Virus record (IMG/VR): IMGVR_UViG_3300043021_000113
Reading direction: 5' to 3' (one strand)
Length of the DNA: 64,000 nucleotides
Source: a virus
Lineage: Duplodnaviria; Caudoviricetes
A program made the translations under genes and the position numbers. This document shows positions 10,365 through 60,216 of the stretch, one piece after another. The notes under the pieces were generated by a model. The model searched no databases. It was not told the origin of the DNA and saw only the letters and a list, made by a program, of their open reading frames with translations. Every line of letters starts with the position of its first letter. Positions within the stretch are counted from its first letter, which is position 1.

Positions 10365-13300
10365 GATATTGACAAAATCTACTTAACAGGCTTCAATGCC
10401 TCTAAAAATGGCATAATGGATGTTCACACATCTTGGTTTGATTATCGCTTTATGGACCAATCGTTCCAATTGCCATTTGCCGATGGAAAAGAAAAGAAAG
10501 TTGCTGAAAGACCAATTGCTCATAATTTTTCAGAACAGCAATTTTTAAATTTCCAAAGATATTTAGAAATGAACGAAGTTTTAACTCCTGAAGAATATCA
10601 AGACTTCGTCGATATAATGAACTTTATTTCTGAATATGAAATAATACCTAATGAATTAAAAGCTTTTGAAGGAGACATTAACGATTACTTCATGGATTCT
10701 TCAACAGAAGGAGAAAAGCTAACAGAAGCAACCAAAAATATTGTTTCTTATTATTTACACGATATTTCAAATTCTGTGGTAAATTCTATGGCTTCGGATA
10801 CACCGGTAACATCTGATACAACAGCAGCTGTTGCTTCTAAATCTGAAAAAGCTAGAGATGCTAAGCTTTTTTCAATGGATAATTACATGACGCTTCCAGC
10901 CATGAAACAAGCTAATTCTTATGGTAAAGATTGCATCGGTATTTCTGCTGTAGGCTTAAAATGTTTTAACACTTTAAGCTTTATGTATTCAAAAAAAATG
11001 TCTAATTTAGAAAAAGAATTAATACAAAAAGGAATAACTCCAGATGCAAGAGTTGAAGATTTAGACCAAGAATTAGTAAATCAAATTTGGCACGATTTAA
11101 ATATTAAAAAAGTAAATTTAGGTAAAAGAGATTATAACAAGTTAACACGACTTAAAGATAGAGCAGGAGTTTTAACTAATGAAGCAATAAATAAAGAATT
11201 AAAAAACTTCTTTACTGGCTTAGAAATAAACGGAGATGATATAGTATCAATTAATAATGTAAATTATAGATTAAACATTGTTGATGGTTACAAATATCTT
11301 TCCCCTTTATATGAAAACGCAAAAAGCATTGATCTTAGCAAGAGAAATGATGATTTATCGGCAATTGTTGAAGAAGCAGCTTTATTTATTGAACTTTTAA
11401 ATCAAACGGGAGTTAATCCAGCAGAATTAGCTTTAAGTAAAATTGAAGAAGAAACGGGAGTTTCTAACTTTATAAGAACTCAAGCAATAAATATCGCTGA
11501 TTATACAGGAGATCAAAATTTATTAATTGAAAAATACAAGTTATCTTCTGCAATTATTAATGCAAATTTAGTTGCTAACGTTAACTTTACAAATACTCCA
11601 ATATTAAATAATATTTACGGTCAATTCGTAAAAAATAATAATATAATTGATGTTAGATTAACAGCTGATAAAAGCTTAGATATGTCCGAGCTTGTGACAA
11701 TTTCAACAGATAATGCAAAAGAGCTTATCCTTGAAAAAATCAATGCAAGTCCTGCACTAATAGGTGTTTATTCTTATTTAACTTCTATTGGGTTACCTCT
11801 TGATGTTATAGCTGATTATATGATATCAAAAGAAGTTAACACAATTGCTAGTTTAGCAGAAAGCAACGTTTTTACTGGAGACAACATGAACGTTGATAAA
11901 GCAATTGCTAAAATAACTGGTATTCCTTATTATAGAAATTATCTTAAAGGTTGGGAAGCAATAAAACTTCTTCGTGGACCAAAGAAAAGTAATTCTAAAA
12001 CAAGCATGTTATATCGTGCTTTAGAAGCTTACAAAAAACATAGATCAACAAGTATTCAAGATGCAAAAATAGCTACAAGCATTCAAAATAATTTAGGAGA
12101 TTATGAAAAAGTAAAGCTTGGACAGTTATTCAGTGAATTTAACAAATTAGGTCCTAATGCTTTAAAAGCTCTTGCTGATGTAATAAAAGATGATTACCCA
12201 AAATTGGATAGCAAAATAAAACATGGAATGAAGCGTTATGAGAACGCAATTCGTGAATCTGTAAGCTATAAAGAAGATCTAGACATGGATTTTATAAATG
12301 CTTTTGCTGAGTTATATTTAGGAGCTGATGAATTAAAGCTTTTTGGATCAAGACTTAATATTAATCAAGGAATGAAAACAACTGCATTTGAGCTTATAAG
12401 TGGTTATAATCGATACAATAATACAGTTGCAAGATTTGCTAAGAAAAGAGATTTAGATTTAATGGAACTTTCATCAAAAGTAAATTTAGATGGAAGCCAA
12501 TTTGACATAAGCAATATTTATACCGGTAAACAAACAAAAGAACTTACGGATTTATACGATGCTTTAAAAATTCATCATAACATAGTTGAAGCTGAAATAA
12601 TGTCTCCTAGCTTTTCTTCAATGCATCTTGCCAAAGATTCCGCGGTAAATATTCTTAGGAATTCTTCAGCTAAATTTAAAGCTCTTGAACTAATGTATAA
12701 AACATTTGGTCAATATGCAAACGAAGATAACTTCAAGGATCTTATGGATTTTTTAAATAAAGACATAACGAATCTTTATCTTTCAAATCTTGATCTTGAT
12801 TATAACGTTAAAAAAGACTCTGAGATTTACAAAGACGAGGACGATAAAAAAATAAAAACAGAACGTGATTCTGTAATTTCCATTAAAAGCAAAAATGGAG
12901 TTGTAAACTTTAAAATATTAATGGAAAAAAGACTTCAAGATTTAAAGAAATTGTATCCTGAAAATCAATTTTTATCTAACATTGGTTACGATTCAATAGC
13001 TGATAAATTAACCAGGGCTGAATATACAATAATGAAGCCTAATAACTTAAACATGAATAGCATTTTAAGTGATACGGACATTTACAGATATTCTCAAATG
13101 GTAAATGGCTTCAAAGAGCTTACAAGTATAAAATCAGATTTTATCGATGGAATGAATATTTCTGATGAATTCATGCTTTATAATTTAATAATAAATAATA
13201 ATGGCTACAGTAAATCTTCTTTTTCAAGATTTTTTGATGAAGCGATAGATTCTGATTCTGAAAATATAATTTCTGATTATATGCGATTTGTTGGTAATTT

Positions 13301-51417: not shown

Positions 51418-52184
51418 TGCTTAATATGATTTGAAACTTCTTTTTTAAGGTTAAGTAATATTCTTTCTCTAAGAACCGTTAATTGTTCATCGGTCATCTC
51501 AGAATATTTTTTATTTTTTATTGTAACAATGGCTTTTAGTGCTTGATATGGCACACCTTGTGAACTAATTTTTAATTCTGTATCTTTATATATCCCTAAT
51601 TTTTCTTTTGCTACTTCTAGTGGTTCTTTTCCTTCTTCTTTGAGTTCTTCTAAATCTAATTTAGAAAACCAAATTCCTTTTTTAATAATAAACTTTAGTG
51701 GAGTATGCCTTTTTGAATGAGTACCTAATGCATCCAAACAACCTGCAATTACTAAATTAAGTGGTAAATTTTCAAATTCTACCGGGCAACCTTTGGTTAC
51801 ATCTGAAATTTTAAGAGTCTTTGGATCTACTCCAGAATTTTTGATTTCTTCTTGGAGTTTTTCATATAATGTATATCTTGGAATTCTGTTTTCTGAGTTT
51901 TCAAGACTTCTTAAAAATAATTCTACAGCACATCTGTTGATTTGATCATTTGCTATATCTAAAACTAAATATCGTCCAGGATCTGTTTTTGACGTATTAA
52001 ACAACATTGTTTTGCAATAATTGTTAAACGTGACTAACTGTTCTTGCGAAGCATCAATAAGCTTTATTTTTTCTTGTGTTATTACACCATCAACTTTTAT
52101 TTTTTTACCTTTCCAATAATATTTGGAAATTTCCATTTCAGCTTTTTTATTATCCAATGCTTCTTTCAATCTTTCTTTCAACAT
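51354..52184 (-). CDS. Hypothetical protein
   Basis: 276-aa ORF. Confidence 0.7.
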   Translation of the reverse strand: MLKERLKEALDNKKAEMEISKYYWKGKKIKVDGVITQEKIKLIDASQEQLVTFNNYCKTMLFNTSKTDPGRYLVLDIANDQINRCAVELFLRSLENSENRIPRYTLYEKLQEEIKNSGVDPKTLKISDVTKGCPVEFENLPLNLVIAGCLDALGTHSKRHTPLKFIIKKGIWFSKLDLEELKEEGKEPLEVAKEKLGIYKDTELKISSQGVPYQALKAIVTIKNKKYSEMTDEQLTVLRERILLNLKKEVSNHIKQWEERMRQIDAVAKYRGLTLE

Positions 52185-52503
52185 CTTCTAAAGTGTTAAT
52201 TATCCTTTTAATAATCTTATCTAGCGTTTCATTATCTATTTTGTTTTTTACTTCGTAATCGTCATTCCAAGGAATCGTTTTTATATTATTAATTTTTACG
52301 TAACTATCCTTGCTTAACTTTGGGTGTGTAATAGGAATTAGATTTTCACTTCCTAAAGAGTTATTGCTTGTTATAGGTAAAACAAGCCAATTATAAGGCA
52401 CACCTGCCTTATTACAAAAAACTTTAACGCATACATACGGTCTCCGTTTTTCGTTTTCTTGAATAAAAATTAAACTACCTTCTTTTGCATTATATAGCTG
52501 CAT
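52150..52503 (-). CDS. PemK/MazF-like endoribonuclease
   Basis: EKRRPYVCV...VLPITS...SYVKINNIKTI pattern and size. Confidence 0.7.
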   Translation of the reverse strand: MQLYNAKEGSLIFIQENEKRRPYVCVKVFCNKAGVPYNWLVLPITSNNSLGSENLIPITHPKLSKDSYVKINNIKTIPWNDDYEVKNKIDNETLDKIIKRIINTLEDVERKIERSIG

Positions 52504-52813
52504 AAATTAAGAAATTTCCATCGTCAAGATCTTTCGAACTTCTCAGTTTCTCAAGTTCTAGATAGACGGCTGCTCGTTGTTTAAAACAAGCGGTTTTACT
52601 TAATAATGGCAACTGATAATTTGAATTTGGAGTTCTTCTTATATTTAAAATTGTTGGGTTATTGTTTTTTATATTAAAAGTTATTACCCTATTTTTAAAT
52701 ACCACATGATATAAATTATTTCCAGTTTGAATAACAGTTCCTGACTCAAAGATCATTTGCCATTCACTATCTGATACCAAGCATTCTGCTTGATATTTTC
52801 TTAAATCAAACAT
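52490..52813 (-). CDS. Hypothetical protein
   Basis: ORF track; overlaps the MazF-like start. Confidence 0.6.
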   Translation of the reverse strand: MFDLRKYQAECLVSDSEWQMIFESGTVIQTGNNLYHVVFKNRVITFNIKNNNPTILNIRRTPNSNYQLPLLSKTACFKQRAAVYLELEKLRSSKDLDDGNFLIYAAI

Positions 52814-53218: not shown

Positions 53219-53722
53219 TTAATCCAATAAAGCTAAAATTTTACGCGCACGTTCTAATATTGGCGTATCTTTTAGTTTTATAATATCTAAAGCTGTTCTA
53301 GAAGTACTTTCTTCTTCCGTTTGCTCTTTATAAAGCTTTTCATCAAGCCAAATTCTAGTGAACCCGTCACCTTCTAAAACTGCTTGGTCATAAATTCTTT
53401 TAATAGATGCTGTGGTTTTAATTTCAACATCTACTGTATCTTCAAAAATTTTTATTGTTTCCGAAACACTTTGTTTGATTTTTTCAATTGGTGGAATATC
53501 TATGAAAGCGTCTTGATATCCCATATAAGAAAAAACCCATCCAAAGTGTTCTAATTCTTCAGCAGCTCTTTTTCTGTAATATTCTTTTAAATCATCGATT
53601 CCTTCGACTTCAAAGAAATTTTCCATTGTCTTATACAAATTGTGGTTGTATAATTCATCTTTTAGCTGTTGATTTAATAATTCTTGCATTTTGTCGCTTA
53701 AACGGCATTCTCTAACATTCAT
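53219..53722 (-). CDS. ftn: Ferritin-like protein
   Basis: LNQQLKDELYNHNLY, EELEH, E..TT.SI and EQTEEE ferroxidase residues. Confidence 0.85.
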   Translation of the reverse strand: MNVRECRLSDKMQELLNQQLKDELYNHNLYKTMENFFEVEGIDDLKEYYRKRAAEELEHFGWVFSYMGYQDAFIDIPPIEKIKQSVSETIKIFEDTVDVEIKTTASIKRIYDQAVLEGDGFTRIWLDEKLYKEQTEEESTSRTALDIIKLKDTPILERARKILALLD

Positions 53723-54009
53723 TCTTTAAGAAAATATTTGTTTTTAATAATGTACCATTCAGGAGCGGCTATTAAATCGATATATTTTAAATATCGTTTT
53801 TCACCTTTCTTTATTTGTTCAAACTTTGTTTTAAATTTAAATTCTTTGCTTACTGTTTCTTTATTTTCAATCATCATGCAAAGTCCTTGTTCTATTTCAT
53901 AAACAGTCATTTTGTAAATAAAATCTTTTGACTCAGAAATTGCATGATTATTGTTATTTATATAAAAATTCTTAGGTTCAATTACTTTCTTTGCCATATA
54001 ATAAGTCAT
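53719..54009 (-). CDS. Hypothetical protein
   Basis: ORF track. Confidence 0.6.
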   Translation of the reverse strand: MTYYMAKKVIEPKNFYINNNNHAISESKDFIYKMTVYEIEQGLCMMIENKETVSKEFKFKTKFEQIKKGEKRYLKYIDLIAAPEWYIIKNKYFLKE

Positions 54010-54256
54010 TAAGCCAAGCTACGGGATTTTCAGATATATTATAATAATTGTCATAATCACTCCATACATTAACAACGTTTAAACGCTTACTAATATAAAC
54101 AGAAACAAGGTTGTTGTTTTTATTATAAAAAGATAAATAAGCTTTTTCTTCTTTATTATTTTTGTACCAACAACCCGGTTTGTGAAATTCGTAACCATTA
54201 TAATTTTTTTTATCCTCAAAATTGGCCATGAAAAATTCATACCAAAATTTAATCAT
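53978..54256 (-). CDS. Array member (divergent)
   Basis: KFWYEFF motif shared with the adjacent gene. Confidence 0.65.
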   Translation of the reverse strand: MIKFWYEFFMANFEDKKNYNGYEFHKPGCWYKNNKEEKAYLSFYNKNNNLVSVYISKRLNVVNVWSDYDNYYNISENPVAWLNDLLYGKESN

Positions 54257-54524
54257 AGTCTAACAAGTCAAGAAGAAAGTTTACTGAATCTCCGTCATAA
54301 TCTGATATTATTTCATTATTTAAAACTTCAATTGTAGTATTTCCTAAATTTAAATCAAGACTAGAAATTACAATAAATTTTCCTTTTCTAAATTTAAAAT
54401 CTACGTATTCTTCATTTTCCGTATGACTTATAAATTCATATCCTTTGTAGCTTTTACCAACTTTAAATTGTGCTATGAAAAACTCAGCCCAAAATTTAAA
54501 CATTGGATCATTTATCTTGTCCAT
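54249..54524 (-). CDS. Array member (divergent)
   Basis: KFWAEFF...LLDY. Confidence 0.65.
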   Translation of the reverse strand: MDKINDPMFKFWAEFFIAQFKVGKSYKGYEFISHTENEEYVDFKFRKGKFIVISSLDLNLGNTTIEVLNNEIISDYDGDSVNFLLDLLDYD

Positions 54525-54786
54525 TATTAATTCCTAATAAATTAAAAATATACTCTAACGCTGCATCATCACAGACTGTAACTTTTGAACCTTCAATTAC
54601 TGAAGCATGCAATTTGTCATCTTTACGTTTAATTTCTAAACGTGAAGTTGGACCCATAAATTGTATTTTTTCGTCTATATCTAAACAGACATAATTTCCA
54701 TAAACTTCGCCAATTTCAAATTGCTTTTTGACTAACTCCCAATAGAAATCTTTGTTTTTCTCCCAATCAGTGAAAATTTCTGTCAT
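54508..54786 (-). CDS. Array member
   Basis: KNKDFYWEL...IFNLLG. Confidence 0.65.
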   Translation of the reverse strand: MTEIFTDWEKNKDFYWELVKKQFEIGEVYGNYVCLDIDEKIQFMGPTSRLEIKRKDDKLHASVIEGSKVTVCDDAALEYIFNLLGINNGQDK

Positions 54787-55340
54787 ATTTCAAATTTTAA
54801 TCTATTACAAAATTTCAAAAATATTTTGTAACTATCGTTATAATTTAAACTTGAATTATCAGCATAAGAAATCATCCTTGCTTCTTCTAACCATTTATTA
54901 TCCTTTGTTATCATAAGCGCATATGGCTTATAAGGGAATAAATAATATCTAAAAAGAATTGATGATTTCCAGTATTTAGCACCAGCTTTTCTTGCTTCTT
55001 CCAATAAAAGTAAGTTATAAAACGCACTATTGTTTAAATATTCTTTTTCAGAAATCATAGAATATAAATTATAATTTACAACTTTACAAAATCTAACAAA
55101 TCTTCTATAATAATAAGATTCTTCTTCTTTTTTAAAATAATAACTAGGAGTAAAAATTCTTGATTCTGAAATTACTTTTTCATCTTCTTTTATTATAAAA
55201 GCATAATGAGCTAATGGTAAAGAATAAAAAACGCAATCTTTGGATTTTTTCCAACGTTTACCTCCAATTGATATTATATATTGAAGTAAAAGTTTATTAT
55301 AAAATTTTTTATTTTTTAAATATTTAGTTTTTGAAATCAT
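54783..55340 (-). CDS. Array member, two-unit fusion
   Basis: MISKTKYLKNKKFYNKLLL and internal MISEKEYLNNSAFYNLLLL. Confidence 0.7.
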   Translation of the reverse strand: MISKTKYLKNKKFYNKLLLQYIISIGGKRWKKSKDCVFYSLPLAHYAFIIKEDEKVISESRIFTPSYYFKKEEESYYYRRFVRFCKVVNYNLYSMISEKEYLNNSAFYNLLLLEEARKAGAKYWKSSILFRYYLFPYKPYALMITKDNKWLEEARMISYADNSSLNYNDSYKIFLKFCNRLKFEI

Positions 55341-55581
55341 AATTTAAAATTTCCATTATCTCTTTAAACGCTGAATAATTATGTAACCAATCTTTAGGTA
55401 AATAAACATCTAAATTATCATCCCAAACATGAATTTCAAATTCAATATTTTTTATTTTTCCAAAAAATACTAAAAAATAATCATTATTAGTTACATTTTT
55501 AAATCCTCGTTCAATTAATAAACTACAAATTAAAATATTAAAAAACTTTTGATTTTTTAAATATTCATTTTCAGTTATCAT
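55324..55581 (-). CDS. Array member
   Basis: MITENEYLKNQKFF...ILNYD. Confidence 0.7.
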   Translation of the reverse strand: MITENEYLKNQKFFNILICSLLIERGFKNVTNNDYFLVFFGKIKNIEFEIHVWDDNLDVYLPKDWLHNYSAFKEIMEILNYDFKN

Positions 55582-55633
55582 AATTTAGTAATTTAAACAA
55601 TAATTCAATTGTTTAATAATCACTTTTAAAAAT

Positions 55634-55906
55634 TTAATGTTTATTATATCCTAAAAAGCTAGCTAAATATTTAACAGCTGACCAATTATAAAACGCGTCT
55701 TGTTCTTTTGGCCAATTTCTCCAAAGAATAGCTGTTTTATCATTAATGAATAATTCATGTTTCACATTGTCTAAATATCCAGAAAAAGTCAATTTGTCTC
55801 TTTCTATAAGATCCAATGTAAAATTAAGTCTTGTTATTATATATTCAACAAATAATGGAGCAATATCTAAACTTGGAAAAAATTTGTTTTTATGTTTTTT
55901 TGACAT
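55634..55906 (-). CDS. Array member
   Basis: ...AVKYLASFLGY. Confidence 0.65.
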   Translation of the reverse strand: MSKKHKNKFFPSLDIAPLFVEYIITRLNFTLDLIERDKLTFSGYLDNVKHELFINDKTAILWRNWPKEQDAFYNWSAVKYLASFLGYNKH

Positions 55907-56144
55907 ATCCTAAATTTTTAGTCATAAAATTTAATGCTTCTTCATTGCTAAAGTCATAATAAAACCAATCTTTACTATCAATTGATAATATCGCATAATG
56001 GTTGCTAACTTCTAAAATATAAGATTTATTGTTTATTTTGCCTTTTAATTTTTTATAAGTGCAAAGTGGACTAGTGTTTTTTTCTTCTATAAAGCCAAAT
56101 CTATTGGCTAAATATAAGAAAAAATCCTTATTATGAACGTACAT
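55890..56144 (-). CDS. Array member
   Basis: NKDFF...NLGYV. Confidence 0.65.
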   Translation of the reverse strand: MYVHNKDFFLYLANRFGFIEEKNTSPLCTYKKLKGKINNKSYILEVSNHYAILSIDSKDWFYYDFSNEEALNFMTKNLGYVKKT

Positions 56145-56439
56145 AATGCATTTTTCGGGTTAAATAATTAATCGCTGCTTCGTCATGATAAATTATGCCA
56201 GCTTCTCTTAATTCAAAATAAGCTCTGTCAATATAGGCAAACATTATTTCATTATTTTTTGTTTTTAAATAAAAATTCTTGTGTTGTTTATTTAAAGAAA
56301 CTTCTGTTTCTAAATAAAAATTTTCATGTTTATTTAAAGAAACTTTTTTTTCTTTAATAACATTTATTTTATTACATAAATAACAAAATAATTCCCTATA
56401 AAAACTCCTTTGTTTTATAAAATCAAGTCTTCCTAACAT
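56131..56439 (-). CDS. Array member with internal tandem duplication
   Basis: VSLNK..NFYL occurs twice. Confidence 0.65.
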   Translation of the reverse strand: MLGRLDFIKQRSFYRELFCYLCNKINVIKEKKVSLNKHENFYLETEVSLNKQHKNFYLKTKNNEIMFAYIDRAYFELREAGIIYHDEAAINYLTRKMHYVRS

Positions 56440-56689
56440 AACCTAAAAGTCCGCAAAGTTCTTTTATTACTTCACCATTGATTAATGCGGTAGATTCCCA
56501 GCCATCAACAATTAAAAATAATTTTGAATCAACAATTCTTAATTCATAAACTCTTTCATCAAAAACTGCATAATATGTTTTTATACCATTATAAGACCTC
56601 GCATTAGTAAAATTTAATTTCTTAATAGCCCAATAAACAAAACTTAAAAATAATTCAGAATTTTTGACATACTTTTCAAAACTTATCAT
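56423..56689 (-). CDS. Array member
   Basis: MISFEKYVKN...LLGYV. Confidence 0.7.
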   Translation of the reverse strand: MISFEKYVKNSELFLSFVYWAIKKLNFTNARSYNGIKTYYAVFDERVYELRIVDSKLFLIVDGWESTALINGEVIKELCGLLGYVRKT

Positions 56690-56930
56690 ATCCTAATAAA
56701 TTAGAAAGTTTTTTTATAACTTGAGTGTTTATTAATAATCTATTATCAATTTTTAAATATATTTCTAAAGAATTTTCACTATAAAAAAACCTGTAATATG
56801 TACCATTAATTATTGTTGAATATCCTTTAAAATTATTTGGATCTTTAAGTTTAAACTTAAATCCAAGTCTTTTAATCATATATAAAGATAATTGATAGTA
56901 AAAATTCTTATTATCGGAATAAAAAAACAT
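56676..56930 (-). CDS. Array member
   Basis: NKNFYYQL...LLGYD. Confidence 0.7.
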   Translation of the reverse strand: MFFYSDNKNFYYQLSLYMIKRLGFKFKLKDPNNFKGYSTIINGTYYRFFYSENSLEIYLKIDNRLLINTQVIKKLSNLLGYDKF

Positions 56931-57164
56931 TTATCTTGTATAATTAAAAATTTTTAATAAATTAAAAATTGCTTGCTCTCCTGAAAAACAATCTCCATTA
57001 AGAACATAAGATATTTGTTTATCTTTAGAAATATAAATTGAAATGTAATTATTATTTAATTTTCCAAAATACGATTCACTTTCATATATCCATTTTTCAT
57101 AATCTAAATTGAATTTTTTTATTATATAATGGATTAATAAATAATAAAAATCATTTTTGTTCAT
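56931..57164 (-). CDS. Array member
   Basis: NDFYYLL...IFNY. Confidence 0.65.
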   Translation of the reverse strand: MNKNDFYYLLIHYIIKKFNLDYEKWIYESESYFGKLNNNYISIYISKDKQISYVLNGDCFSGEQAIFNLLKIFNYTR

Positions 57165-57447
57165 AATATCCCAAAAGATAAAAAATCTTATTTATTGCAT
57201 CAACATTGAACAAATATTGCACAGAACCATTTTTTCTTTCTTCTCCAAGCCAAATTGAATTATTTTTATATTTTGATTTATGATCATTAAGTATAAATAC
57301 ATAATAAACATCACCAATTGTTCCATTATAAGATAAAAAATAATCATCAGCATTGCTAACTTTGAAATAATCAGAATTTTTGACCATTTCATGAGCCATG
57401 TTTAAATAAAAATCAATGTTCTTTTTGTAATCTTGTTCACTTATCAT
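57151..57447 (-). CDS. Array member
   Basis: MISEQDYKKNIDFY...LLGYY; start placed at the family-consensus Met. Confidence 0.65.
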   Translation of the reverse strand: MISEQDYKKNIDFYLNMAHEMVKNSDYFKVSNADDYFLSYNGTIGDVYYVFILNDHKSKYKNNSIWLGEERKNGSVQYLFNVDAINKIFYLLGYYEQK

Positions 57448-57709
57448 TATATCCAAATATTTTTGCAATTTCTAAAAATGCTTGATAATTTTTATAAATT
57501 ATCTCTTCTCCAGGAATATTTAATTTTCTATATCTAAGATAAAAGCCATCATGATCAATTACTATTGAGCTACAAACTCTGCAGTTGCTAAAATGCCAAA
57601 CATAATATAAATCGTTTTCGTCTAATTCATAATTATTAGCATATAACCAACTAAAAACTAATTTATTATAAAAACAAATATTTTCGTAATATTCTTTTTT
57701 GCTTATCAT
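57437..57709 (-). CDS. Array member
   Basis: MISKKEYYENICFY...IFGYND. Confidence 0.7.
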   Translation of the reverse strand: MISKKEYYENICFYNKLVFSWLYANNYELDENDLYYVWHFSNCRVCSSIVIDHDGFYLRYRKLNIPGEEIIYKNYQAFLEIAKIFGYNDK

Positions 57710-57724
57710 ATATTGTTAAAATCC

Positions 57725-58006
57725 CTAAATTATATCTTTAGAAATCCACCTATGGTTATTGTATCCTGCAATATCTGCTAAATAAAAAACAACTTCTTTT
57801 TCTCCATAAAAAATTTCATGGTGATTTTCAAATAAACACCACAAACCACAAGCAATCTTTTTTATTTGATAATTGTTGTTATTAATTCTTTTTTTAAAAA
57901 TTAAATCCCAACTTGTATCATCTTTTTTAAAGCCTGCTTTTTCCGCTAAAACTGGAATTAAACTTCTATAAAAAGCTAATTGTTTTTTATGTTTTTTTAT
58001 AATCAT
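57725..58006 (-). CDS. Array member
   Basis: FYRSL...IAGYN. Confidence 0.65.
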   Translation of the reverse strand: MIIKKHKKQLAFYRSLIPVLAEKAGFKKDDTSWDLIFKKRINNNNYQIKKIACGLWCLFENHHEIFYGEKEVVFYLADIAGYNNHRWISKDII

Positions 58007-58271
58007 AATCGATTTCCTCTAATAAAATATAAATTATTTGTTCATTAATGGCTGCTAGTTCGTGGTCAGATCTCCACATATAACAGATTTTTCCTACTTC
58101 ATGAAAATTAATGTATACTTTATCGGGATATACATTAATTTTTCCCCTAAAACAAATTGTCCCAAGATCATTTCTTGTACATTCAAAATTTAATCTATTA
58201 CATAAATAAATTCCTAAATCACAATAAAAATCTTTATTTTTTGAAAAATCTTTAATCTCTAGCATATCCAA
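57987..58271 (-). CDS. Array member
   Basis: KNKDFYCDL...AINEQ...IDYD. Confidence 0.65.
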   Translation of the reverse strand: MDMLEIKDFSKNKDFYCDLGIYLCNRLNFECTRNDLGTICFRGKINVYPDKVYINFHEVGKICYMWRSDHELAAINEQIIYILLEEIDYDYKKT

Positions 58272-58521
58272 TAAACCTTGTTAAAACATCCAAGACATCT
58301 TCATTTATAGCTACACAATAATTATCTTCTGCTTCATAAACTTTGACATCTCCTGTTTCATATTCAATTATAATTTCGTATACTGTATCATAATTGTTAT
58401 CTACAAAAACGATTTCTTGTTTTACATTATATTTAATAACATAGTTTACTTTTTTACAAATATAAATTGCTAATTGAGAATAAAACGATTTATTTTTGTT
58501 AAAATCATTCTCTGTTATCAT
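58252..58521 (-). CDS. Array member
   Basis: MITENDFNKNKSFYSQL...IGYA. Confidence 0.7.
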   Translation of the reverse strand: MITENDFNKNKSFYSQLAIYICKKVNYVIKYNVKQEIVFVDNNYDTVYEIIIEYETGDVKVYEAEDNYCVAINEDVLDVLTRFIGYARD

Positions 58522-58756
58522 AATTTAAAAACTCAAGAATATTTTTGAAAGCATCATATAAAAAAAACTTTTCTTCGTTTTTTTGAAAATACAAAAATAA
58601 TCCGTCTCCGTGACATTCAACAATTGTGTTTTTGTCTATTTCACAATAAAAATCTCTTTCTTCTTCTGTAACTTTATAATTTCTTTCTTCTAATAAACTT
58701 TTAATCAGCGTTTGGTACATGTCCAAATTAGCTGTATATTCCTTTTCTGTTATCAT
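58505..58756 (-). CDS. Array member
   Basis: MITEKEY...FLNYD. Confidence 0.7.
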   Translation of the reverse strand: MITEKEYTANLDMYQTLIKSLLEERNYKVTEEERDFYCEIDKNTIVECHGDGLFLYFQKNEEKFFLYDAFKNILEFLNYDNRE

Positions 58757-59025
58757 ATTTCAATTTTTAATAATTTACAAAATTTCAAAAATACGTCATA
58801 ATCACTTAACCATTCTTCTTCTGGATCATAATTACAACGCATAGTCATTATTTCAATACTTTTTAAGTCATTATAAACAACTAAACCATAAGGCTTATAA
58901 GAAAATAAATAATATTTAGCATATTTTGTATTTTTCCAATATTTAGCGCCTTTCTCTTTTGCTTGTTCTAATAACCAAACATTAAAAAATACTTTATTAG
59001 AATAATATTCTTTACTTGTTATCAT
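58753..59025 (-). CDS. Array member
   Basis: MITSKEYYSN...GAKYWK...FLKFC. Confidence 0.7.
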   Translation of the reverse strand: MITSKEYYSNKVFFNVWLLEQAKEKGAKYWKNTKYAKYYLFSYKPYGLVVYNDLKSIEIMTMRCNYDPEEEWLSDYDVFLKFCKLLKIEI

Positions 59026-59270
59026 AATTTTTTATAACCTATAAAACCAGCAAGAAAAATACATTCTATTTTTAGCTCTTTAAAGCTTAAATATCTTATG
59101 TATAAATTGCACCAATCATCAGTATAAGGAAAATATAAATAATTAAAAACGTATTTATCAAAAATTATTTTATATTTTATGCAGTAATCGTCACGTTCTA
59201 TTTTAGGGTTAAAATATTTTTCTAAAATATATTTAAAAAGTTTTGAATAAAATTTCCAATTATTATCCAT
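59022..59270 (-). CDS. Array member
   Basis: FYSKLFKYILEKY...IGY. Confidence 0.65.
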   Translation of the reverse strand: MDNNWKFYSKLFKYILEKYFNPKIERDDYCIKYKIIFDKYVFNYLYFPYTDDWCNLYIRYLSFKELKIECIFLAGFIGYKKL

Positions 59271-59559
59271 AACCTATTTTTTTAGAAAATATAAAACATA
59301 AGTCTTTTATTGCAACCCAATTTAAATAACTTTTCCATTCTCCGTTATAATACCAATCACCAGTTAAGTTTTCAATACCGAAAGAATTTGTACCAGAAAT
59401 TACAGAATCAGGTTTAATTGTATATATAGTGAGAACTGCACAACCTTTATATACTAAAATTTCTTTTTGTTTAACTTCTGGGTTGTAATATTTTTCTAAA
59501 ATATATTTAAAAAGACTTGAAAAAAAGGTATAATTATTTAAAAGATTAAAATTATTCAT
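59263..59559 (-). CDS. Array member
   Basis: FFSSLFKYILEKY...IGY. Confidence 0.65.
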   Translation of the reverse strand: MNNFNLLNNYTFFSSLFKYILEKYYNPEVKQKEILVYKGCAVLTIYTIKPDSVISGTNSFGIENLTGDWYYNGEWKSYLNWVAIKDLCFIFSKKIGYG

Positions 59560-59569
59560 AATTAAAATC

Positions 59570-60046
59570 TTATATTAAAGTTTTACTTTCGCTTGCAAAA
59601 TACTTTGCTTTGTATTTATCCAAAATTTCTTTTGCTTTTTTACTGTCTTTTTGTGTGTTACAATAACAATTAAACATTGTGTAATTATTATTAACGTATG
59701 TGTAGTTATAAGGTATTTTTGCTTCTTCAAGATCTTTTGACATGTTATCTGTATTTAAACTTTTACAAGTTGCTTGAACAAGCCATAATTTGTCTTTTTG
59801 TTTTTTTTCTTCAAATAATTTTACAAAATAAACTCCAACAAGGTTTGATAAGCCAATAATTAAAGCTTTTTTCCAATTGTCCAAACTCTCGTCGCACATG
59901 TAAATTACTATGTAAGTATAAAAACCATAAGCTAAAGCATTTGCAATTGAAGCTGTAATTTTTCCACCTTTAATTGTTGCAATTGATTTTATGGTTTGAA
60001 TTATTACATTAATAACATTTAATATTATAAATCCAGTTAAATTCAT
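59570..60046 (-). CDS. Membrane protein (three TM helices plus soluble C-terminal domain; DUF2179/DUF5698-like)
   Basis: Hydrophobic N-terminal helices; NVIIQTIKSI and N.VGVY patterns. Confidence 0.6.
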   Translation of the reverse strand: MNLTGFIILNVINVIIQTIKSIATIKGGKITASIANALAYGFYTYIVIYMCDESLDNWKKALIIGLSNLVGVYFVKLFEEKKQKDKLWLVQATCKSLNTDNMSKDLEEAKIPYNYTYVNNNYTMFNCYCNTQKDSKKAKEILDKYKAKYFASESKTLI

Positions 60047-60216
60047 AAGTCTAAGTAATTATCAACAATTGTAAATTCTGGATTCACAACCTCAATTACA
60101 AAGCCATTATTTCCTGGATCTTCTATAACTTTAAAATCTGCTTCTTGTGTAATTTCTGTTAGTTCATTATTACAAGCTATCAAAAAAAACGGTGCAAGAA
60201 TTAAAAATCTTTTCAT
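60043..60216 (-). CDS. Small putative lipoprotein (57 aa)
   Basis: MKRFLILAPFFLIAC lipobox; ATGA overlap with the next gene. Confidence 0.6.
   Translation of the reverse strand: MKRFLILAPFFLIACNNELTEITQEADFKVIEDPGNNGFVIEVVNPEFTIVDNYLDL

Follow-up and report, generated by a model that had tools for sequence, protein, structure and literature searches.

Rows of small, similar genes are already known from large phages. Tandem arrays of more than 30 similar genes were described for phages G and 121Q (Hua et al. 2017, PMC5646251), and about 35 zinc ribbon copies for Bacillus phage G (Iyer et al. 2021, PMC7824862); the passages of these papers that deal with the arrays put them down to tandem duplication, with the function unknown or guessed. 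A comparable locus is present in a window of 64,000 nucleotides (nt) of the IMG/VR phage record IMGVR_UViG_3300043021_000113 (Duplodnaviria, Caudoviricetes), where an array of 5.6 kb (positions 53978-59559, minus strand) is composed of 20 back-to-back open reading frames (ORFs) representing 21 units. “The window” indicates this whole stretch, which corresponds to positions 14032-78031 of the 111,878-bp record, read on the reverse strand. The CheckV completeness of the record is 63%, and a near-identical contig of 152,878 bp encodes the same proteins.

Like the arrays of phages G and 121Q, the locus contains dozens of head-to-tail paralogues of one small protein. Unlike the copies that the passages concerned call “very similar,” the copies in this case are old and at most 47 to 56% identical, they belong to a different, undescribed protein family, and the record (112 kb; near-identical contig, 153 kb) is below the 200-kb cutoff for jumbo phages. 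Another difference is a dual-coded junction, in which a tyrosine codon near the end of one unit provides the ATG of the next unit; the same passages do not describe such a junction for the G and 121Q arrays. While tandem arrays of small genes are known, the protein family is undescribed and the dual-coded junction is unusual. The poly-immunity loci of polymorphic toxin systems also contain rows of diverged small paralogous or analogous genes for single-domain binders (Zhang, Iyer, Aravind and colleagues 2012, PMC3482391). The array is similar to these loci in its rows of diverged small genes, in the gain or loss of whole genes, and in its single-domain proteins, which may likewise be binders, but it has no match to an immunity family and no neighboring polymorphic toxin, and it is phage-borne and confined to one phage lineage.

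Large eukaryotic DNA viruses carry tandem multigene families (MGFs) such as MGF110, MGF360, and MGF505 of African swine fever virus, and these families are thought to act on host defenses. The array shares with them a variable region of paralogues in tandem that is enclosed by conserved genes and a copy number that differs among related viruses. A genomic accordion proper consists of near-identical copies of recent origin whose number rises and falls within populations, as in the amplification of K3L in vaccinia virus that Elde and colleagues reportedly described in 2012. Unlike such a strict accordion, the array contains no near-identical copies (best pairs, 47% and 56%), and its copy number did not change among close strains over the parts recovered, so that it resembles only the stable state of a multigene family, with adjacent and demonstrable paralogues, and with copy number and content that differ between conserved flanks. 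It is a slowly remodeled multigene family and not an active accordion.

Family membership and junctions of the units

The single units were 77 to 105 amino acids (aa) long, and one ORF of 185 aa was an in-frame fusion of two units. Their alignment yielded the consensus MIxxxxYxxNxxFYxxL ... LGY. In the C-terminal core columns L/I-G-Y, 41 of the 54 units aligned from this array and from a sister array contained the G and 46 contained the Y. Leave-one-out profiles recovered 17 units with E values between 3e-4 and 6e-12 (Z=1000). Unit U02 was joined to the family through U01 (BLASTP, 2e-7), and U19, which was marginal in its leave-one-out profile (E value of 0.12), falls with the family in the tree. 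A search of the six frames of the whole 112-kb record with the family profile gave 19 matches, all of them within the array and identical with the units from which the profile had been built. Units U01 to U19 are one sequence family, and within the 112-kb record this family is restricted to the array. Units U20 and U21 are related to each other (BLASTP, 1e-6), but hhalign assigned them a probability of only 0.2% against the core family. They represent a separate sequence family for which the same order of helix, five strands, and helix is predicted as for the core. The small ORF that follows the array, U22 (53719-54009), had no profile match and is unrelated in sequence to the family.

Phenylalanine, tryptophan, and tyrosine together made up 18.9% of the residues encoded by the array compared to 10.5% in the remaining ORFs on this strand of the window, and tyrosine alone 9.7% compared to 4.7%. 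The net charge of the units ranged from −9 to +12, with 7 of the 19 family units being acidic. An earlier note on this DNA, made from the sequence alone, had given the coordinates, the strand, and the counts of about 20 genes and 21 units correctly, and its shared terminal motifs, common profile, and aromatic-rich variable middles were all found again. Its assignment of all 21 units to a single set of paralogues was right for U01 to U19, as indicated by the profiles, but not for U20 and U21.

At 12 of the 20 junctions, as the earlier note had proposed for modular, overlapping units, the ATG of the next unit is formed by the last two bases of a tyrosine codon TAT plus the following G. Ten of these 12 use the tyrosine of the C-terminal (G/N/D/H)-Y motif, and the same arrangement occurs at 24 of the 37 junctions of the sister array. 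The resulting overlaps are 8, 14, 17, or 20 nt long and always lead into the +1 frame, compared to overlaps of mostly 4 nt between the flanking genes. The tail G-Y-D-(N/K)-stop of one unit and the head M-I-T/S-E of the next one are the same bases read in two frames, and in several units the upstream TGA sits within the downstream ACT-GAA codons for Thr-Glu. Since tail and head share these bases, the conservation of both “motifs” is also partly shared. Three other junctions are of the ATGA type, behind units ending with K(I/F)EI or KKL, and three are without an overlap.

Scans of 8 kb for terminators and Rfam elements gave no terminator-like site and no Rfam element. A sigma-70 promoter scan of the array was not above the shuffled controls, and the sigma-70 consensus does not apply to promoters of the Bacteroidota type. 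A single transcript, with the units coupled by termination and reinitiation of translation, would be the simplest reading of this arrangement. Programmed +1 frameshifting at the junctions, which would result in poly-unit proteins, was dropped because no conserved slippery motif was present.

Sister array and slow remodeling

Among 1.84 billion representative proteins, only 23 matched the family profile at an E value of ≤1e-3, and those traced matches that were encoded outside the window all sit in similar arrays on metagenome contigs. No match to the array was found by blastn in 50,697 phage records. The neighboring ATPase, the ferritin-like protein, and the U01/U02 subfamily as queries revealed no relatives in IMG/VR or in JGI metagenome contigs, and the tblastn matches of the ATPase were all distant MoxR-like ATPases from unrelated phages; the relatives used in this analysis came from protein collections and from the contigs encoding these proteins. 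Judged by these searches, the array family appears to be an orphan and undescribed.

Five of these relatives are close strains. One (L006) is identical to the window over 5.9 kb, and the DNA identity of the others is 98% (L007), 93% (L008), 89% (L009), and 95% (L010). All five are collinear with the array, four without any gap and L008 with one gap opening, which holds over the recovered parts because four of the five are fragments. Contig L006, which represents the lineage of the window with 18 or 19 family units, and L016, which represents a sister lineage with 34 or 35, both originated from the sequencing run SRR11794475, so that two phages of this kind co-exist and could exchange units. 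The phage lineage is also present in the JGI samples 3300035499, 3300035506, 3300035517, 3300036769, 3300043078, 3300043095, 3300046319, and 3300046327.

Contig L014 (12.9 kb) of the sister lineage spans the whole slot of the array, which is bordered by the gene for the 158-aa membrane protein on one side and by the ferritin-like gene on the other. Its flanking proteins are closely similar to those of the window, with the following identities:

ATPase, 90%
RNase H, 69%
119-aa gene product, 78%
158-aa membrane protein, 77%
ferritin-like protein, 90%

Between the same flanking genes, however, the slot of L014 contains 38 small ORFs. Thirty-four of them, R06 to R39, are units of the core family compared to 18 in the window, and the family as a whole has 34 to 35 units in L014 and 18 to 19 in the window, while R40 to R43 match U19 to U22 with 86, 53, 68, and 80% identity, respectively. 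The core orthologue pairs of both phages share 29 to 57% identity, in contrast to 69 to 90% for the flanking proteins, and 11 of the 34 core units of L014 were without a counterpart in the window at an E value of ≤1e-3. The units of both phages intermix in the tree, indicating that most paralogue lineages are older than the split of the two phages. Expansions specific for L014 account for the six units of its U15 clade, the three of its U02 clade, and the pair R10/R11, and the order of units is partly rearranged, with a U04-like unit in the first position and a U03-like unit near the end.

The ratio of nonsynonymous to synonymous substitution rates (dN/dS) of the concatenated units against the close strains with 89 to 98% DNA identity was between 0.15 and 0.39, with individual values of up to 0.82 for U08 and down to 0.02 for U19. 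In the comparison of the window with L014, in which dS was saturated at about 1 to 2 for all genes, dN was between 0.32 and 0.91 for the core units but only between 0.06 and 0.19 for five flanking genes and 0.07 for U19. The units are therefore constrained coding genes under purifying selection, and their proteins change roughly 3 to 10 times faster than those of their neighbors.

The closest pair of paralogues is 47% identical in the window and 56% identical in L014, which argues against a recent duplication; the events that are visible are losses, old duplications, and remodeling. Contig L013, with 86 to 89% DNA identity to L014, contains an extra 72-aa unit between an R19-like and an R20-like unit. 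The joint in L014 consists of the left flank of the left junction in L013 and the right junction of L013, with the switch occurring at an AAAA sequence about 14 nt upstream of the ATG. Since the extra unit has no close paralogue, it is either an old unit that was lost in L014 and also in L012, or it was acquired from elsewhere. In L011, with 74% DNA identity, R23 plus R24 and also R26 are absent, and the joints are located in GG(T/C)TATG. In three whole-unit differences among the relatives, the joints are positioned inside the junction motif GGNTATG. In L012 (3116-3396), the R24 orthologue is readable only over three frames due to two frameshifts, which is possibly a decaying unit or the result of homopolymer errors in the assembly. 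Other marks of this flux are the fusion of U17 and U18, also present in L010, a short unit R33 behind a gap of 31 nt, and a stretch of 52 nt before U16 that reads as the C-terminal helix and the junction of a lost unit, still providing the ATG of U16.

Unit-precise joints are consistent with recombination at the junction motif, but selection for products that are in frame and still coupled would give the same picture. The absence of recent duplicates and the unchanged close strains indicate a slow turnover. Number and content of the units do vary among relatives as the earlier note had suggested, and the array is not fixed, at least not in number and order when compared to L014, while the close strains are collinear. 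Purifying selection, with a dN above that of the flanks, was the outcome of the dN/dS comparison. The active accordion of that note had to be abandoned in view of paralogues not closer than 47% or 56% and of strains with 89 to 100% DNA identity that remain collinear over the parts recovered. Its shuffling by recombination at the junctions is retained in so far as the joints lie in the motif, while recombination as such is only consistent with the data.

The units of the array are, in the order in which they are read:

59263..59559, minus: U01, 98 aa, first unit, member of the U01/U02 subfamily with the FYSKLFKYILEKY motif; leave-one-out E value, 2.7e-5; orthologue R15 in L014, 45% identical
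59022..59270, minus: U02, 82 aa; ATG is TAT plus G of the G-Y of U01; BLASTP to U01, 2e-7; three copies in L014, R16 to R18
58753..59025, minus: U03, 90 aa, KIEI end and ATGA junction, U03/U17/U18 subfamily; leave-one-out E value, 2.8e-8; 47% identical to U18; R38, 56% identical
58505..58756, minus: U04, 83 aa, acidic (net charge −9); leave-one-out E value, 2.3e-9; orthologue R06, 57% identical and first unit in L014
58252..58521, minus: U05, 89 aa; leave-one-out E value, 5.7e-11; Tyr-ATG junction with a 17-nt overlap
57987..58265, minus: U06, 92 aa from the ATG at 58265 (94 aa from a TTG at 58271); leave-one-out E value, 4.9e-8; Tyr-ATG junction
57725..58006, minus: U07, 93 aa with a 12-residue tail past G-Y; leave-one-out E value, 5e-6; orthologues of 96 aa in L007 and L009
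57437..57709, minus: U08, 90 aa, preceded by a 15-nt gap; leave-one-out E value, 3.4e-8; dN/dS of 0.82 against L009; orthologue R19, 45% identical
57151..57447, minus: U09, 98 aa from the ATG (105 aa from a TTG at 57468); leave-one-out E value, 2.8e-8; orthologue R20, 29% identical
56931..57164, minus: U10, 77 aa, without the first short helix; leave-one-out E value, 1.8e-8
56676..56930, minus: U11, 84 aa, starting immediately past the stop of U10; leave-one-out E value, 7e-9; orthologue R22, 39% identical, with a Shimodaira-Hasegawa-like approximate likelihood ratio test (SH-aLRT) support of 95
56423..56689, minus: U12, 88 aa; leave-one-out E value, 1.5e-11
56131..56439, minus: U13, 102 aa, sheet region enlarged by an insertion; leave-one-out E value, 8e-8
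55890..56144, minus: U14, 84 aa; leave-one-out E value, 3e-4; orthologue R29, 35% identical
55634..55906, minus: U15, 90 aa, single in the window compared to a six-unit clade in L014 (R30, R31, R33 to R36; SH-aLRT, 97); leave-one-out E value, 1.2e-8
55582..55633, minus: relic of the 3' end of a lost unit (52-nt “gap”), one frame of which reads stop-TIELLFKLLNYDN-stop; TAT plus G gives the ATG of U16 (read from the sequence)
55324..55581, minus: U16, 85 aa, the modeled unit; leave-one-out E value, 5.7e-12; AlphaFold2 (AF2) model with a predicted local distance difference test score (pLDDT) of 92.3 and a predicted template modeling score (pTM) of 0.82
54783..55340, minus: U17+U18, in-frame fusion of 185 aa, joint VVNYNLYS/MISEKEY with the split at 55058/55059; two profile matches in one open frame; 90% identical fusion in L010
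54508..54786, minus: U19, 92 aa, marginal member and slow-evolving; leave-one-out E value, 0.12; 86% identical to R40; dN/dS of 0.02 to 0.06
54249..54524, minus: U20, 91 aa, other sequence family with a FWxEFFxAxF start; hhalign against the core, 0.2%; AF2 pLDDT of 83.7 and pTM of 0.77; R41, 53% identical
53978..54256, minus: U21, 92 aa, paralogue of U20; BLASTP U20-U21, 1e-6; R42, 68% identical
53719..54009, minus: U22, small ORF (92 to 96 aa) past the array, not a member; no profile match; R43, 80% identical

In L007 and L009, the orthologue of U07 runs on for three residues (WGF) to its stop, whereas U07 itself ends at a TAG (57725-57733, minus strand), apparently through a point nonsense change at the very C terminus.

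Predicted fold and possible roles of the units

The structure of U16 was modeled with its paralogues as the alignment. The AF2 model contains a helix at residues 4 to 9, a second one at 11 to 24, strands at 28 to 32, 36 to 43, 46 to 53, 57 to 61, and 64 to 67, and a C-terminal helix at 68 to 78. The model of U20 has the same order of helix, five strands, and helix and shares about ten weak structural neighbors with that of U16, so that the comparison of predicted folds suggested by the earlier note yielded one common arrangement. In the alignment of 54 units, hydrophobic or aromatic residues occupy the conserved columns (U16 positions 7, 13, 14, 17, 20 to 22, 27, 39, 43, 48, 50, 52, 59, 71, 72, 75, and 79 to 81). 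They are placed in the two helices, at mostly alternating positions of the strands (39, 43, 48, 50, 52, and 59), and in L-G-Y; position 39 is Tyr or Phe in 53 of the 54 units. The remaining strand positions and the loops have a high entropy and hold the insertions and deletions. The model, with its high scores and with conserved columns as expected for a core, points to a fixed scaffold with a variable surface, as had been proposed in that note.

Known families did not account for these proteins. Scans of the units against Pfam, PHROGs, and PADLOC gave nothing below an E value of 0.01, no Pfam match to a SUKH or Imm immunity family appeared at an E value of ≤1 for the 10 units scanned, and the sequence-profile search of the PDB gave nothing below 0.19. 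No significant match was found by Foldseek (best E values, 0.16 in PDB and 0.03 in BFVD). The ESM Atlas feature scores of ≤0.82 were in the range expected by chance, and the best structural neighbor, DUF1815 with a template modeling score of 0.68, was uninformative. The best fold matches of U16, with Z scores of 4.5 to 5.6, were to frataxin/CyaY, a HicA-like protein, the N-domain of RNase H3, the C-terminal domain of T4 MotA, and the CdiI immunity protein. Frataxin/CyaY and the MotA domain likewise possess an N-terminal helix, an antiparallel sheet, and a C-terminal helix on one face (70 to 75 of 85 residues aligned at 3.8 to 4.0 Å), but there is no sequence relationship, the scores are in the range of chance, and neither a conserved acidic ridge nor a DNA-binding surface is present. 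For frataxin/CyaY, a Z score of 4.5 to 5.6 and a root mean square deviation of about 4 Å are within the range of common topologies, and no Pfam match was found. A functional link between the frataxin-like topology and the adjoining ferritin-like gene was also considered; no iron-binding ridge is conserved and no support was found, so this is probably a coincidence. The units were not assigned to HicA toxins because there was no Pfam match, no conserved His column in the 54 units, and a fold Z score of only 4.4 to 5.5.

The best guess, to be taken as tentative and short of an even chance, is that the array encodes a panel of binders or inhibitors of host proteins whose translation is coupled. 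A single long operon within the block of replication and early genes would give rise to about 19 single-domain cytoplasmic proteins of one orphan family in this phage and to 35 in the sister phage, each unit predicted as a two-layer sandwich in which a pair of helices at the N terminus is followed by an antiparallel sheet of five strands and by a helix at the C terminus. Units would be read in turn by termination and reinitiation, with L-G-Y-x-x-stop and M-I-T/S-E... sharing their nucleotides in two frames. Each one may be aimed at a different or polymorphic protein of the host or of a competitor, in anti-defense, host takeover, or an immunity-like function, and the panel would be remodeled over evolutionary time by loss or gain of whole units at the junction motif and by fast amino acid change. 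That the L-G-Y/ATG junction serves, in addition, as a built-in cassette boundary, allowing deletion, insertion, or exchange of whole units between co-infecting phages without breaking frame or coupling, and thereby a strain-specific and reshufflable library of inhibitors against polymorphic host defense or surface-regulation proteins, is a more daring and doubtful idea. Several results weigh against a panel of binders. There are no recent duplicates and no changes among close strains, the whole-gene dN/dS is below 1 and thus gives no sign of positive selection, dS against L014 is saturated, and the best VIA-align Z scores of 5.6 to 5.8 for both models are non-specific, being rated as a common arrangement in the range of chance topologies. 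No informative domain fusion was found when homologues were searched for longer or fused forms, which is weak evidence, and the exposed sheet with its aromatic residues might just as well serve for dimerization or for the binding of nucleic acids.

If the aromatic sheet indeed binds DNA or RNA, comparable to the MotA C-terminal domain or to folds resembling the TATA-binding protein or the RNA recognition motif, the panel may adjust how strongly different targets of the phage or the host are transcribed or translated. The weak likeness of U16 to the DNA-binding domain of MotA (Z score of 5.1 over 73 residues; 5.4 for the U20 model), to the RNase H3 N-domain (5.6), and to HicA-like double-stranded RNA-binding folds (5.5), the high Tyr and Phe content, and the location in a block for replication and nucleic acid metabolism agree with such regulators. 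All these Z scores, however, are below the level of a meaningful topology match, the 7 acidic units of 19 (down to −9) are unfavorable for nucleic acid binding, and no basic or aromatic surface column is conserved, the conserved aromatics being at core-like positions, so that regulators appear improbable. A similarly low probability was assigned to a poly-immunity-like locus, in which each unit would neutralize a different toxin domain, either of nucleases from abortive-infection or toxin-antitoxin systems of the host or of interbacterial effectors. The genomic appearance is the same, tandem diverged small paralogues in variable copy number (PMC3482391), the CdiI immunity protein (6cp9) matched both models with Z scores of 4.5 to 4.8 and the TriTu immunity protein (7zhm_D) matched U20 with 5.5, and a MazF-like gene is positioned about 1.5 kb downstream. 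These Z scores are again non-specific, no SUKH or Imm match appeared at an E value of ≤1, and in the search of the 1.84 billion representative proteins the family was without relatives in bacterial genomes. Moreover, the array is adjoined by genes for RNase H, a membrane protein, and a ferritin-like protein instead of a polymorphic toxin, and the MazF-like gene is not one.

The units may also pair or stack by their sheets as homo- or hetero-oligomers, in which case the variable “surface” would be a co-evolving interface. A five-stranded sheet with an open, aromatic-rich face is unlikely to be exposed to the solvent in a monomer, and the fusion of U17 and U18, retained in L010, shows that a single chain can hold two working units; yet it is the only fusion among about 55 units, and with no other sign of assembly such building blocks are rather unlikely. 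Least of all should the units be dispensable passengers, old duplicates under weak selection whose copy number differs due to neutral loss. The dN above that of the flanks, single dN/dS values of up to 0.8, the relics, the truncated units, the possibly frameshifted unit in L012, and the G+C content of 22 to 24%, the lowest of the window, would agree with decay. All 21 units are nevertheless open, their concatenated dN/dS is 0.15 to 0.39, about 55 units in two lineages have kept the hydrophobic core and the architecture of the junctions, and phage genomes rarely keep 5 to 9 kb of useless DNA.

Genomic setting and meaning of the array

The minus-strand block around the array contains genes for replication and nucleic acid functions, such as helicases, a methyltransferase, RNase H, the MoxR-like ATPase, and an HNH protein. 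No PHROGs match was found for the giant plus-strand ORFs of the window. The region 54001-60000 has a G+C content of 22 to 24% compared to 28 to 31% in the flanks, making the array the most AT-rich part of the window, and its AT skew is near zero with −0.03 to −0.07, compared to −0.09 to −0.18 in the flanks. Both values fit the T-rich codons that the units use for Tyr, Phe, Leu, and Ile.

Some differences from the sister phage concern the neighboring genes. A 57-aa ORF with a lipoprotein-type signal (…LIAC…; 60043-60216, minus strand) is located between the genes for the 120-aa protein and the 158-aa membrane protein; it has no counterpart in L014, in which R04 (922-1281) and R05 (1281-1757) abut. 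The ferritin-like gene downstream of the array (53219-53722, minus strand) encodes 167 aa in the window and 142 aa in L014 (11226-11654), with 90% identity over 134 aa, and in L014 it is followed by an extra gene for 196 aa (11773-12363) that is missing from the window. Further downstream in the window, a MazF/PemK-like growth inhibitor gene (PHROG 1936, E value of 3e-7) shares 14 nt with an upstream, unmatched ORF of 107 aa (52150-52503 and 52490-52813, minus strand), and the two may form a phage-borne toxin-antitoxin pair.

Large uncultured phages are full of small genes without a known function. With its 5 to 9 kb, a several-fold faster evolution, and a two-fold difference in copy number, the array family is a strong candidate for the interface of phage and host. 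A confident fold model, defined scaffold and variable positions, and natural variants with 34 and 18 units make it a tractable entry to the targets of such arrays. One short junction sequence serves as the C terminus of a protein, as the next start codon, and often as the upstream stop, and knowing this helps to call genes in AT-rich phages whose starts are not tied to Shine-Dalgarno sites. If the junction is indeed a cassette boundary, this would mean that these phages possess a modular counter-defense “library” with its own grammar of exchange.

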